IMG/VR virus record: IMGVR_UViG_2526164603_000034
Reading direction: 5' to 3' (one strand)
From: a virus
Taxonomy: Duplodnaviria; Heunggongvirae; Uroviricota; Caudoviricetes
DNA: 18,316 bases
The position numbers are program-made. Below, piece by piece: positions 9,001 through 15,000 of the stretch. Position 1 is the first letter of the stretch. Every line of letters starts with the position of its first letter.

Positions 9001-12000
9001 ATCATTATAGCCTTCGGTCATCGGCGTATTCAGCGCACGAACTGCACCCGGCGACATCTTACCGGTCAGCCATTCATCAGTGGCTTTGGCACCATCACTG
9101 ACAGCCTTACCGGTTGCCTTCAGACCTTTACCGACAGTATCAGTAACCGCGTTTTTGCCATCAGGCAGGGTATCGATGACCTCATCAGCCCCCCTGCTGC
9201 CACCGGCAAAAATATCCTGCACAGTTGCGACACCCGGCAGCCCCATACGGCTGAACTCATTTAAAATACGCGCCCCTGTTTTTACCGGGCTCTGAATCAT
9301 CGCATCACCGAGTCCACGGGCCATTTCCCCTGTTCCCCGGACGGACTGGGCGAAACCTTTACCCATTGTTGGCAATACATCGCCCAGGCTGAACGACGTA
9401 CTGTTATCCTTCCAGCGATTCGGATCAGAGAAAAATGCTTCATAGCTGTCAGTTTCGCCGGGTTGCTGAATGTTCAGGCTGTTACGATTCTGGTTACCGA
9501 GTTGCGCCTCAGGACGCTGTTCCTCTGAATAGGCCATACAGACTCCATAAAAAAACCCGGCACAATGGCCGGGCATCAGGAAATGGTATTAATGGAATAT
9601 CGTGAATTACTGGGCGTAATTCTGTTTCAGTCCACGGATAAACTGAGATGCAGATGAAGCACTTTCATCTCTGGCCTGTTCCCCCCTGGCCTTTTGAATA
9701 CGGAGAAAATTCGCATACCCGTTCTCCAGCAATTTCTGATTCTGAGGTTCCAGCATTTCAGGCTGACGGGCCGCTACATTTCTGGCAAATGACAGCTTAT
9801 CAGGATCATCTCCCGCCCAGTTGATAACCTGTTGCTGAAGTTTTTGTTGCTGAATTTTCTGTTGATGCGGTTGTGAACCAGTCGCAGCATAATATTCATC
9901 CACCGCAGCCTGAGCATTACCGCCATTCTTGATCGCGTCCGCCGCTACGTTGCTGGCCCCCTTCTGAAGCTCTTTCAGAGAAAGTCCCTGCTGCTTCGGC
10001 ATAAAATAACCATAATTTTTCGATATCTCTGCAAATTTGCTGCGATCCCTGACCTGAGCGATAGCCTTATCAACGGGTATCGCCAGCACGGTTTGATCAT
10101 CAGGGTGCGCACTGCCGTATTCTGTTACAGGTTTATGCGCGGTGGAGCCATCGCTGTATGTGAGATCAAGGCCAATAAGTACGTACCCTTCCTGCTGCGC
10201 TGGTACGATACTGCCAATCCTGGCCTCTTTTATCGTTTTGTCCCCGGTTGAATCAGGCATGCCAATACGCTGTTGTAGTTCCGGGGCAAACACGCCGGAA
10301 AGCACATCGAGATTTTCCGGGGTATTCAGCGAATCGATCGCCATGTCCGGCTTATCACCAAAGATTTTTTGCAGGTTGATCACGGCCTGACCCGCTTTCG
10401 CTGCATAGCCTTCGTTTGACATAAGAATTAATGGATGTCCCTTTGGCAGCTGCCCGAACAGACGCGTTGCAGCCTCCTGATCGCCAGCCTCAATTGCTTT
10501 TCCAAGCGCTTCCATTAGTGGCTGGCTATGGGCAATCATATCGTTATACTCAAGCCGTCGCTGGTTGTATTTCTGCAACTGGAGTCGCTGCTGCTCCATA
10601 CCCAGTGACGCATTCCGGTAATTCTGGTTAGCGTTAAACTCCCTTTCCTTCAGTGCATAATTACGGTCGTCAACTTTGGCTCTGTAATCAAAGTTCCGCT
10701 GATCAACGTTTTTATTATGTTCAAACTGAGACTGCGCAAACTCAAAATCGCGCTCGTTATTTTTCTGTTGCCGGGCAAGCTGTGCTTCACGCAGACCAAG
10801 CTCCTTACGACGGGTCATTGCCTGGTCAACGGTGCTGAATCCGGCAAGTAACCCCTGTGCAAATCCGCTCATTCACCACTCCTTAAAACAAAGAACCAGC
10901 AATGCCGCCAATTACTGCTCCAGCAACAGCACCAACAGGACCACCAACGGATGCGCCAATAGCCGCCCCCGTACCAATGCCCGTACCGATATTCTGCTTG
11001 TTCTGCGCTTTCTGTTGCGCCGCCATCTGTTTGTTCGCAGCCTCAATTTCTTCACGTCGTCTGTCTGCGTCACTTATTCCCTGTAATGCCTCACGCCGCG
11101 ACTGATTTGCAATATCCAGTAAACCGTATCCCATATTGCCCCCTTACGCTGCCACCAGTTGGCCGCCAACACTCAGTTTCTGTCTTGCCGGTGCAGAAGC
11201 CCCCGTCAGAATATTCATCTGGCGATCCTGTTCGGCTTCACGGATACCATTTTTCGCGCCAGCAATTGCCAGGGCATTACGTAACCCCAGCGTATTACTG
11301 TCGGGATTATCCGGGCGGTTTACCCCGTATCTCGCCATCTGGTTATCCTGCGCCATCTGCGCTGTACGGAGACTGGAAGTGGCAAGGCCTCCCACCCGTG
11401 CAAGCTGTGCATTCATCAGACTGTTGTTCTCCCCAAGGTCAGCCAGCCTTGCCACGCGGGGCAAATATCTGGTTCGCCAGTCGTCGTATTGTTGGCGTGT
11501 CAGCGCTGCTGACGTCTGCCAGTCACCCTGTGGGCGGTCTGCTCCTGAATAACCAGCCCTTGCGAGAGTTTCGTATTTGCCATACTCCATAATTACAGTC
11601 TCCAGTTCTGAGCCTGATGCTGAATGGCATTAGCGCCGGTGCCAGGTGTTTTAGCACCGCCACTTCCTCCGCTACCGCCAGCCTTATGCATCGCATATGC
11701 ACCTGCCGCACCCAGACCAGCGCCAACAAGAGAGGCTCGCCCCTGCTGTTTCGTAAACGCCGCCTGTGCATCCGATTTAGCTTTTGCCAGACTGCTGTCT
11801 GCCAGAGAGTTAAAACTCTGTAACGCATCCGCCTTCTGACCAGAACCGAGAGCAGCAACATCCTGTAGCCCGGCAACATACTTATCTGCCTGCGATACCT
11901 GCCCCCGTGTGGTTGTGTCAATCTGCCCGGTTACCTGGTCACTCTGGTTCGCATTCATTACCGCATTAAAACGACCACTGGATGGGTCAACGCCGGACTG

Positions 12001-15000
12001 AGCAAGATTACCCGCAAGCTCCTTCCGTGCTTCGCCAAACTGTTTCTGATACCCCAGATTTGTGGTGCCAGCAATATTGTCGTACTGCTGCTCACTGTTC
12101 AGGTCATCGACCTTTTCCATGAAGTTATCTTCAGCCGGGCGGAGGATATTTTTGTAATCCTGCCACCCTTTCCAGGCCACTTCTTCCTGTGCTATTTGCG
12201 CTGCTGTTGGTTTTACTTTGGTATCACCACCGCCTTTACTTCCACCCATAATGGCCCCCTGGATAACAAAAAACCCTGCCGGAGCAGGGTCAGAATGTGA
12301 ATTACAATGTTGGTTTAAACACAATGATGAAAACTGTAGCAGTCAGACCGCTATCCTGAACACCATGAAGCCATCCTCATCATCCGGCATTCGCTCAAAG
12401 CCCAGTCGTTTTCCCAGCCGGATAAATCCCCGCCTTGCCGTATGGAACTCAGCCCAGCGTCCGCCAGCCAGATGGGTTAATGTCTTCACCTCCGGCAGGT
12501 AACGCTCAACGCTGTTACTCCCCGTACACACGCCCAGCAACACCAGAACATAAGGGATACCATCAGCACTGAGCACAGAACGCAGCACCAAAAAGCCATC
12601 AGGTGCCTCAAAACAAAACGCCTGCTTTTTAAGGCAGGCGTCTTTAACTTCATTCATAAATTCAGGGTTGCGGGAATTTCTCACAACACGCTGCATATAC
12701 CAGAGAATTTTATCGTTCATTCTCTCACCTGAAACGGGTGCCATATCGGCTGAACCTCAGCAACCAGTTGACGGGGACTCTCGTCCCCGTCGCGGTTTTC
12801 CTACTGCTTACACTGTAAGAACGCCGCAAACTCCGCTCCCCACAAATTCAGCCGGAACTCACACAGTGAACCGTGCAACATCCAGATGGTGAAGATAACC
12901 GTCATGCAAATTGTGACGGTGATAAGCGATTTTTGCGACATAGCGCTTGACTCCTTTTACAGAGAGGCGCTAACCTTCTACTTGCTTAAGGTACGAAGTG
13001 TTAGGGCCTCGGGTTAACGTTAAGTTGACTCGGGGCCTTTCCACATCAGGCCTTCAGGTTCACCCTCCAGCCATCAGCCGAAAGGCACCCACGCATAATT
13101 TACGGTTTTTGCCCTGTACGGGCAATAAAAAACCCGCCATCACAGCGGGTAGTAAACGGTTACCGGATACAGGTCAGAATTTCAGGCCAATGCCAGCAGT
13201 AACGCCACTCGTGCGCCAGTCGCCAGAGCCGGAACCTTCGTAAGCCACATCCAGTGTAACACTCTCATTCAGGTTAAACTGTGCACCTGCAGCCCACGCA
13301 AGGGAGGTTTTTTTCGTGCTGTTGCTTTCAGAAAATCCGCCACTACTGTTAATATTGTCCTTAATTTTCAGGTCAGCGCTAACTTTAGCAACGCCCATCC
13401 CTGCCATCGCATATAAACTCATGTACTGATTAACCCGCCATGAAGGCCCCGCTAACAGACTCCAGTAATTCGCCCTGATATCCGTTCTGGCAGAAGCTGC
13501 CGGATTCTTAATCTTCCTGGTATGATCGGCTGACTGCACATCAATAAATGTCTGTGAGTTAGTGAGAGAACGCGTCCATGTAAAAGAGGTGATAACGCCA
13601 AAATCATCCGTTATCTCGTAGCGATACCTGATATTAATGCCCTGTGGATTTTTATCCTTGCCTTCATATCCACTGACCCGACCATCTGTATATTCGCCCA
13701 ATGAAGAAAAGTAGTTTCTGTTGACGAAATGACTGAAAGTCTCCCTGTTATGAGCAGTCGCATCCTTTACAAAATCCTTCAGTCCCGGAAACTGAAAGTG
13801 CGCATACCCCAGAGAAATTGTATGCTCTCCTTCTGCTGCATGTGCAGATAAATTTACACAGGCAATCCCGGAGATTGCACACACAACCAGTGTTGCTATA
13901 CTCTTCATTTAAGATATCCTGTATTCAGATAACACGCTAAACTTTTTAATAATACATCTTTTTAGACATTTTAAATGAATATTAAAGACTCGCTTCAACT
14001 AATCATATACTGATGTATTAATAACCAGGACCTTATCTATATACGGCTTTCGAATATCCCATGTTGCACCACCGGAATAATGCTCACAGGAATATATTTT
14101 ATTTCCTGTAGCACCAGTGGATGTGGTATAAATCGGTCGATCATAAGGAGTTCTTTTCCAGTTATAATACCCGACCAGTGCAGGCATGATTGCGCATGGA
14201 TATCCAAGGTCCTTTTCAAATTTGATATCAACAGGTATTAACTTCGCGTCAAGCAGCATCATTTCGCCATGATAAATCATCTCACCGTCCGGGTTATACA
14301 TGGCGATACCATACTCAGAAGGTGGAGTAACCATATTCGCGAAAGCATAAACCGTCGTAACACCAGGGTTCGTTCCCCTGACAATTACATGAAGCCTTAG
14401 TGCATGATATCCATCAATCTGTTCATGCGTGTACATGACATCGGCCTTCTTCTCTGTTCTGATAAAGAAAAAACAACTTTTGCCTGACGGGATTGATGTT
14501 TTAAAAAAAGACTTTTCAGTCGCCGGTATGGTGCCTTTGTTGATCAGACACTGCGGCGTAAAACCTGGACTTATCCATACGCTGCCATCCGGCTTCATAA
14601 TGCTCAAACCGTACATAACACTTATCCCCAGAATGTATAAATATAAGATCCCATACCCTGCTCAAGATTCGACCACGTCACCGTATTGTCATTAATGGTT
14701 ATCTTCGGTACTTTCCGATCCGCAAATACATTATTCCAGGGAAATAAACAACATACAGCCTGCAATGATTTCCCGTCGGGTTTATTAGTGTACGTCTTTG
14801 AGCCAGACTCCGCTGTAAATCTGTCCAGGAAAAATACTGGAGTCAGCACGCCCGTAACATTAACGTTATTTCTGTTATAAATGGCAAAACCGTATTCCAA
14901 TACTCACCTCCTGATCAGCGTAATCTGCCTATGCGAACAGCCAGTCGTCCATTCTGGTCATAAACCTCAATTTTATCATTGCGGATCACCAGTCCTACAT

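Follow-up and report, generated by a model that had tools for sequence, protein, structure and literature searches.

Two intrinsic terminators ahead of start codons in the late operon of an Stx2a prophage, and their probable bypass by Q antitermination

We analysed a stretch of phage DNA of 18,316 nucleotides (nt; IMG/VR record IMGVR_UViG_2526164603_000034), referred to here at its full length as the window, and in it two hairpins, denoted T_A and T_B, each of which is followed by a U-tract, a Shine-Dalgarno (SD) sequence and the start codon of a phage gene. By structure, T_A and T_B are genuine Rho-independent (intrinsic) terminators. We propose, with a probability of about 0.65, that they act as insulating terminators within a single ~38-kb late operon dependent on the antiterminator Q, and that they are bypassed by Q antitermination. 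The elements on which this proposal turns, and the genes flanking them (named by product length in amino acids, aa), are listed below.

9549-9574, minus strand: T_A, intrinsic terminator (7-bp stem, 6 GC; 6-nt loop; U7) between the 421-aa gene and the giant gene
9535-9546, minus strand: SD GGAG (9546-9543) and giant-gene ATG 9537; AU between U7 and SD, five nt from SD to ATG
12268-12291, minus strand: T_B, intrinsic terminator (8-bp stem, 5 GC; UCCG tetraloop; U6) between the 133-aa and 218-aa genes
12247-12260, minus strand: SD AGGGGG (12260-12255) and 218-aa gene ATG 12249; seven nt from U6 to SD, five nt from SD to ATG
13127-13150, minus strand: third terminator of the same type, directly after lom (-11.3 kcal/mol, z -3.2)
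1156-9537, minus strand: giant gene (ECs_1242/ORF80), 2793-aa polyvalent protein with domains LPD38, LPD5, LPD1 and MuF_C; final gene of the late operon
9607-10872, minus strand: 421-aa gene (ECs_1241/ORF79), upstream neighbour of T_A
11593-12249, minus strand: 218-aa gene (ECs_1238/ORF76), first gene behind T_B
12343-12744, minus strand: 133-aa gene (ECs_1237), last gene ahead of T_B

Stx2a prophages of Escherichia coli O157:H7 match the window at 100% identity in their right arm, and VT2-Sakai/Sp5, 933W and Phi24B are near-identical to it (Phi24B, 99.5% here); judged by sequence, the window is the right arm of an Stx2a prophage of the 933W/Sp5 type. Every phage gene of the window lies on the minus strand, and the host gene yfdC (1-933) on the plus strand. 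In the genome holding the window, the prophage is integrated at a tRNA-Arg, and a Q-family antiterminator is encoded 27-30 kb upstream of T_A and T_B. Q, tRNAs, stx2AB and the lysis, terminase, portal, capsid and tail genes share the strand of the window's phage genes, and these co-oriented late genes are interrupted by a single insertion sequence (IS), IS1203, in the opposite orientation.

Structure of T_A and T_B

Intrinsic terminators were defined by a GC-rich stem of ~5-14 bp, a short loop and a U run directly 3′ of the stem, placed on the sense strand in non-coding sequence downstream of a stop codon. T_A reads 5'-GCCCGGC CAUUGU GCCGGGU-3' (9574-9555) with U7 at 9555-9549, and T_B reads 5'-GACCCUGC UCCG GCAGGGUU-3' (12291-12272) with U6 at 12273-12268; both have the stem and loop, the U run and the sense-strand, non-coding placement, and both show evolutionary upkeep. 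The hairpins begin 32 nt (T_A) and 51 nt (T_B) after the upstream stop codon. The initial annotation of this DNA had described a minus-strand GC stem-loop, 6-7 U, a ribosome-binding site and an ATG at both sites, and this layout is present as described, the 17-22 nt from hairpin to ATG being taken up by U-tract and SD.

Folded alone, the hairpins yielded -13.6 kcal/mol (z -3.0) for T_A and -15.0 kcal/mol (z -3.4) for T_B, and shuffled sequences were as stable in 0/200 and 1/200 cases, respectively. When the full intergenic RNAs were folded, the centroid held the terminator hairpin alone and left the SD unpaired; compared with shuffles, these whole intergenic folds had no extra stability (z -1.3 and +0.2). 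Control by a riboswitch, attenuator or leader peptide was rejected for both sites, the leaders being just 32 and 51 nt long and having no alternative fold or aptamer. Rfam searches at the gathering threshold and at E ≤1 gave no match at T_A or T_B, the matches in the window being ALIL, the IS3 frameshift signal, and a sub-threshold sok.

A loose consensus scan of the window returned 25 sites compared with 18 ± 4.4 in shuffles, which is no overall enrichment, with T_A and T_B among the top matches. The strict scan, which called for a perfect stem of ≥6 bp with ≥4 GC pairs and ≥5 consecutive T, returned exactly three sites (13150, 12290 and 9574), each of them intergenic and on the coding strand; the mean in 200 dinucleotide shuffles was 0.08 sites, and none of the 200 reached three. 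Because intergenic DNA makes up only ~4% of the window's phage part, the intergenic position of all three strict sites is not due to chance. The third site, after lom, was missing from the initial annotation. The three terminators resemble one another only in generic GC-stem and U-run features and are therefore not copies of one repeat.

Start codons

Longer open reading frames (ORFs) that take in the hairpins exist, starting at ATG 9576 (in frame with the giant gene) and at TTG 12324 (218-aa gene). GenBank AP000363 annotates the giant gene from ATG 9576; RefSeq uses 9537 and 12249. Among close relatives, the position of ATG 9576 is occupied by ACG in one class of T_A haplotypes (class 3), the U-tract of T_A varies between 7 and 9 nt, and the U-run of T_B carries 1-nt indels, with the SD-ATG blocks conserved. 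The upstream starts, which would make the hairpins coding, are ruled out by these U-run indels and by the loss of the ATG in relatives. The hairpin regions are therefore non-coding, and the true starts are 9537 and 12249.

Conservation of the terminators

Close relatives were drawn from GenBank phages and IMG/VR (50 loci, 421-aa protein 74-100% identical). T_A occurs in these relatives as 10 haplotypes in three classes, and 70/70 stem cells are paired; three of the seven stem pairs vary and are always paired (a GC<->AU double change; GC/GU/AU; CG/UG). The 38 nt upstream of T_A diverge heavily among the same haplotypes. An exhaustive, profile-free search with the 421-aa protein extended to distant homologues of as little as 22-40% identity and yielded two more IMG/VR lineages (L057-L061 and L062-L082) plus named Aeromonas and Vibrio phages, and the gene order 133-218-148-83-421-giant is maintained in the relatives. 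No further relatives came from a metagenome scan or from viral scans with P0127 and P0129, the single match in a scan of genome contigs was a 552-bp contaminant contig in a Xanthomonas assembly, and megablast of the distant loci against named phages gave no matches.

The region ahead of the giant gene was compared across 73 loci, which represent 25 distinct upstream sequences. In 23 of the 25, a hairpin of -9 to -23 kcal/mol, directly abutted by a U-run, lies 16-39 nt before the giant-gene ATG; in the other two, its place is taken by a larger structure whose U-run is poor. At least eight unrelated stems occupy this position (GCCCGGC, ACCCGGU, GCCCGAC, GCCCGG with an 8-nt loop, AGCCUGC, AGCCUC, AAGCCUCAC and GGCCCUGCCAGG), and identity of the giant protein's N-terminus falls to 27% across the relatives that keep the hairpin. 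The layout in the Aeromonas phage phiARM81mr is that of T_A (AGCCCCGA...UCGGGGCU, then UUUUCUUUUG, GAGGA and ATG 10532), and in Vibrio phage D339 GCCCGC-CUAGU-GCGGGU and a U-rich run directly follow the 421-aa homologue, ~75 nt ahead of the giant start. Several of the L062-L082 lineages have 0.3-3 kb of extra genes after the 421-aa homologue, and the terminator still adjoins the giant-gene SD. Across these genera, T_A is deeply conserved in position, with repeated replacement of its stem. The U-tract was kept with every replaced stem, which favours a terminator, since a stability hairpin would not need the U-tract.

Two further observations concern this junction. It is an insertion hot spot, with unrelated ORFs according to lineage (e.g. 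L070 7377-9073 and L080 7392-10314). Moreover, the giant gene of phiARM81mr (KT898134, L083) is probably annotated too short: its annotated start is a GTG at 12260, the frame is open from before 10532, and the terminator-SD-ATG block occupies 10475-10534, 1.7 kb upstream of the annotated start.

The stem of T_B is invariant in 9 haplotypes of close relatives amid variable flanks, the variable parts being the loop (U/C), the U-run (6-7), the SD (GGGGG versus GAGGAG) and the upstream spacer. T_B is retained in L057-L061, in which the 218-aa protein is 56% identical and the stem has been shortened by a paired 1-bp deletion. Unlike T_A, T_B is lineage-restricted. The 133-aa gene (ECs1237) stands beside the 218-aa gene in all lineages, including relatives without lom or hok.

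Other terminators of the late operon

The strict scan of Sakai Sp5 from Q to the prophage end revealed 11 sense-strand terminators downstream of Q: after Q, after the tRNAs, two after stx2B, after the portal gene, the major capsid gene, ECs_1224, ECs_1229 and lom, and T_B and T_A themselves. Four of these 11, namely those after the capsid gene and ECs_1224 as well as T_B and T_A, have an SD and ATG within 17-22 nt. The terminator-SD-ATG layout is a general feature of this late operon; recurring as it does after the capsid gene and ECs_1224, it is an operon-wide habit and not special to the 218-aa and giant genes. The operon closes, after the giant gene, with a strong hairpin that has no good U-run. 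It stands at 1120-1155 of the window (minus strand, -22.6 kcal/mol, z -5), shares sequence with the end of the giant gene, has only AUUCUU behind it and does not count as a canonical terminator; it marks the late-operon end near the prophage-host junction and the convergent yfdC.

Promoters, expression and genetics

The remaining phage features of the window, several of which bear on where transcription starts, are as follows.

between the 218-aa and 83-aa genes, minus strand: 148-aa gene
10883-11134, minus strand: 83-aa gene, between the 148-aa and 421-aa genes
12801-13090, minus strand: hok/sok-like type I toxin-antitoxin locus; Hok/Gef ORF at 12801-12941, leader up to the start site at 13090
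12801-12941, minus strand: Hok/Gef ORF, 46 aa (Pfam PF01848, E 4e-8)
13174-13908, minus strand: lom (Ail/Lom outer-membrane protein), a lysogen-expressed moron gene
minus strand: other window phage genes, encoding a 533-aa internal virion protein, a tail-tip fibre protein, a small outer-membrane protein and a 205-aa membrane protein

Transcription start sites (TSSs) were taken from the entries listed for uninduced EDL933 in the Cappable-seq study of Zehentner et al. (2023), to which all statements on TSSs refer, and were converted by the relation window coordinate = 1392084 - EDL933 coordinate. Sense TSSs at 13090, 12993, 12981 and 12903, seen in all or most conditions, belong to the hok-like locus and are the strongest of the region among those listed; an antisense, Sok-like TSS lies at 12984. 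A further sense TSS, at 14964, precedes the omp/lom block and falls within the 3′ end of the tail-tip fibre gene. The hok-like locus, in which a sub-threshold Rfam sok match spans 12928-13090, supplies constitutive promoter activity on the sense strand, 0.5-0.8 kb upstream of T_B. A hairpin 3′ of its ORF (12763-12797, -23.6 kcal/mol) has no U-run, which makes T_B the first intrinsic terminator on the way downstream from the hok-like constitutive promoter. Further upstream, a low-GC block at 13300-15100 (0.37-0.45 versus 0.50-0.55 in the flanks) spans the small outer-membrane, 205-aa membrane and lom genes and looks like a lysogen-expressed moron operon that closes at the lom terminator.

For the 218-aa, 148-aa, 83-aa, 421-aa and giant genes, the listed EDL933 TSSs include no canonical one, an absence that is suggestive only. 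Among the same entries, the 421-aa gene has one weak internal TSS in one condition, and the giant gene has only weak internal signals, mostly classed as degradation. Within the window, a scan found no sigma-70-like promoter site between hairpin and ATG at T_A or T_B, and with the 17-22 nt filled by U-tract and SD no promoter fits there. Two promoter candidates in the T_B leader, TTCATC-19-TGTAAT and TTGTGT-12-TGTAAT, were rejected on account of wrong spacing and the lack of a TSS among those listed.

The genes behind the terminators are needed by the phage. In the systematic Sp5 gene deletions of Mondal et al. (2016), ORF79 (ECs1241) and ORF80 (ECs1242) were essential for infectious particles, and their mutants formed heads and packaged DNA but were defective in tail assembly; deletion of ORF76 (ECs1238 by numbering) strongly reduced infectivity and lysogenisation. 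From these infectivity defects it follows that genes behind both terminators are expressed in lytic growth. In Phi24B, lom (CM18) was strongly expressed in lysogens and unaltered by induction, and the "8 kb ORF" CM7 (49148-57571), corresponding to the giant gene with its start placed at ATG 9576, changed significantly with induction, as did capsid and terminase (Riley et al. 2012). The CM7 result surprised these authors, CM7 being downstream of lom; constitutive lom was confirmed by RNA-seq (Veses-Garcia 2015). The position of T_B and T_A between lom and the giant gene would explain how a constitutive lom can lie upstream of an induction-dependent 8-kb gene.

Taken together, the lack of room for a promoter, the requirement for the genes and the link of the giant gene to induction leave the Q-modified late transcript from pR' as the only known route. 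The initial annotation had made the genes behind the hairpins dependent on read-through if termination is efficient; with Q upstream, and with no TSS for them among those listed, these genes must indeed be expressed in this way.

Proposed mechanism

RNA polymerase modified by lambda Q or Q21 resists hairpin-dependent termination. We infer both termination at T_A and T_B by unmodified polymerase and Q as the factor that overrides it. In the lysogen, ordinary RNA polymerase would start at constitutive right-arm promoters upstream of the omp/lom block and the hok-like locus and would be halted at the lom terminator and T_B; transcription leaking past T_B, or begun spuriously in the next four genes, would be halted at T_A. 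The outcome would be silence of the virion genes, above all of the 8.4-kb giant gene. After induction, Q-modified RNA polymerase from pR' would pass T_A, T_B and at least nine other upstream terminators and reach the end of the giant gene, and the SD and ATG after each U-tract would permit fresh translation initiation.

Several points weigh against this proposal. In Stx phages no obvious lysogen promoter lies just upstream of T_A, where the EDL933 entries listed contain the one weak internal TSS in a single condition; insulation at T_A would be a second line of defence, for which no need is demonstrable. T_B is absent from L062-L082, where the 218-aa homologue abuts the upstream ORF, and as a whole lineage does without it, T_B is dispensable in principle. 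The Vibrio relatives may be without Q-type antitermination, which would point to a dosage role in the lytic phase instead. Finally, the supplement of Tree 2014 lists no Hfq site at the coordinates of T_A or T_B.

Alternative explanations

A role as dosage attenuators in lytic growth, in which the terminators are partly overridden (or, without Q, not overridden) so that mRNA declines stepwise and the last, probably low-copy giant gene receives least, is compatible with insulation rather than exclusive of it, and partial termination is one of two roles proposed in phage L (PMC8022706). It would suit the retention of the pre-giant terminator in Vibrio and Aeromonas phages, whose regulation may differ, and the strict terminators that also follow the portal gene, the major capsid gene and ECs_1224, none of them morons. 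However, Q-modified polymerase is generally highly terminator-resistant, as known of lambda Q and Q21, and the terminator after the portal gene precedes the scaffold and capsid genes, whose high expression is at odds with a simple step-down; as the principal function we regard attenuation as rather unlikely. The same holds for the view that the pre-giant terminator is a dedicated, ancient checkpoint for the giant gene and not generic operon punctuation, a tentative idea that arises because the terminator stays with the giant-gene ribosome-binding site across Escherichia, Aeromonas and Vibrio phages, through at least eight stem replacements and insertions of up to 3 kb upstream. If it were true, the checkpoint might determine when a multi-domain, ejected virion protein is made or hold it at a very low dosage or, alternatively, spare the cell an 8-11-kb transcript that is costly or harmful, roles that might hold in phages without a Q-type antiterminator.

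The initial annotation had offered terminators or, alternatively, elements of RNA stability or processing. The structures are indeed of the terminator type, and stability as the sole role, either as 3′ barriers guarding upstream cistrons from exonucleases or as 5′ hairpins stabilising the downstream segment, has become improbable. The hairpins are stable and isolated with an unpaired SD, and hairpins occur at cistron boundaries operon-wide, as such a role would have it; but the U-run abutting the stem, which is needed for termination and not for blocking exonucleases, was kept with at least eight independently replaced stems, and neither an Rfam family nor an Hfq site in the Tree 2014 supplement coincides with T_A or T_B. 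Still less probable is a giant gene that forms a separately regulated unit with its own promoter or a dedicated regulator. A terminator just ahead of the gene would isolate it from upstream transcription, and in distant relatives the terminator stays at the giant-gene start despite 0.3-3 kb of inserted genes, yet the 17 nt from hairpin to ATG are occupied by U-tract and SD and contain no sigma-70-like site, no canonical giant-gene TSS is among the EDL933 TSSs listed, giant-gene mRNA tracks induction in Phi24B like that of capsid and terminase, and the gene acts in the same assembly step as the 421-aa gene upstream. The earlier proposal of separate regulation for the giant gene and the four genes upstream of it is not borne out either: the same four genes sit behind T_B in like manner, also without a promoter, ECs1241 is essential for the same step of tail assembly, and the layout recurs after the capsid gene and ECs_1224. 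That the hairpins are chance palindromes without function would agree with the loose scan, which was not significantly above shuffles, but is contradicted by the strict scan (3 sites versus 0.08 expected, all sense-strand and intergenic), by the compensatory changes in the T_A stem and by a position kept with stem turnover across genera, and its probability is negligible. A private giant-gene promoter and chance are both effectively excluded.

Relation to known systems

The insulation proposed for T_A and T_B has a close parallel in lambda tR'/pR' and in StxS/tR' of Stx phages. There, unmodified polymerase ends its transcript at an intrinsic terminator in the lysogen, and once Q has loaded at pR' this terminator is passed (Sy et al. 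2020, PMC7547250). StxS/tR' belongs to the same operon and follows the same logic, with termination at T_A and T_B presumed. In contrast, tR' is a promoter-proximal decision point whose terminated product is a regulatory small RNA, whereas T_A and T_B lie 27-30 kb downstream and no small RNA or Hfq site is recorded there. In the P22-like phage L, which has one late promoter and a Q/gp23-type antiterminator, Rho-independent terminators are predicted between virion genes, and either partial termination or the stopping of non-antiterminated transcription was proposed as their role (Zaworski et al. 2020, PMC8022706). The intra-operon terminators are of the same kind in both phages; here, two sites lie 17-22 nt from the next start codon, and one of them, the pre-giant site, is conserved in position across genera with repeated stem replacement.

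Morons are promoter-gene-terminator cassettes in late regions, exemplified by HK97 gene 15 and lambda lom and bor (Juhala 2000, as cited in PMC4104026 and PMC3594210). The lom terminator and T_B resemble the terminators of such cassettes in that they close lysogen-expressed units (lom; the hok-like gene plus ECs1237) with TSSs active without induction, and the lom block is low in GC. The moron concept covers the lom terminator and part of the role of T_B. Differences are that ECs1237 is conserved with its neighbours in all relatives and that T_A follows essential virion genes. A lysogen promoter upstream is present for T_B (listed TSSs at 13090-12903), and for T_A there is the weak internal TSS alone; comparison with related phages did not reveal a cassette inserted ahead of T_B, the adjacency of ECs1237 and the 218-aa gene being kept in all lineages. 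Since the genes ahead of both are conserved module members, T_A and T_B look ancestral to the module and not imported with a cassette.

In phage T7, an intrinsic-type terminator in the late block, T-phi, follows the major capsid gene 10, and partial passage sets relative dosage. Sp5 likewise has a strict terminator directly after its capsid gene, although T7 uses its own RNA polymerase and no antiterminator. Terminators within late operons are already known as a kind, and no new mechanism is revealed. The literature search found no paper describing T_A, T_B or conservation of the pre-giant terminator, and the tenacity of the terminator ahead of the giant gene is a point that might surprise a specialist.

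Stx phages drive toxin release by enterohaemorrhagic E. coli, and the late operon is the toxin's transcription unit. It is punctuated by about a dozen strong terminators, the last two of which separate lysogen-expressed accessory genes (lom and the hok-like toxin) from essential virion genes. T_A and T_B are concrete sites at which to ask over what distance Q antitermination lasts, and how complete it still is, along 30-40 kb, and the pre-giant terminator provides a well-defined comparative test case for the purpose of intra-operon terminators.

Additional features of the window

Two plus-strand, terminator-like, long GC-rich hairpins lie at 12618-12641, inside the 133-aa gene, and at 12769-12792, the latter being the reverse complement of the hairpin that follows the hok-like ORF. 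PGAP calls the hok-like locus itself, which the older Sakai and VT2-Sakai annotations lack. EcOnc53 (Tree 2014), on the minus strand near the 3′ end of lom and without a Northern signal, was given in older-genome coordinates that could not be placed reliably and was not used. Antisense TSSs among the EDL933 entries lie at 11309 (plus strand) in the 148-aa gene, in 7/8 conditions, and at 9411 (plus strand), 126 nt into the giant gene, in 3/8; the latter is directed back across T_A.

PGAP names the product of the 83-aa gene "bacteriocin", and sub-threshold Pfam matches indicate a glycine-zipper-like C-terminus. Because every relative, the Aeromonas phage among them, keeps the gene, it more likely encodes a small membrane or virion component than a bacteriocin.

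The IS1203/IS629 element occupies ~17798-18316 (plus strand), runs past the window end and carries an ALIL frameshift pseudoknot at 18134-18250. It is inserted in opposite orientation at about codon 3 of the homologue of ECs_1232, which is thereby cut off from its SD and first codons, the remaining ORF beginning at an internal ATG at 17781. The late transcript has to traverse this element too. ECs_1232 is essential for tail assembly in Sp5, and the prophage with the interrupted homologue may be defective in forming infectious particles.

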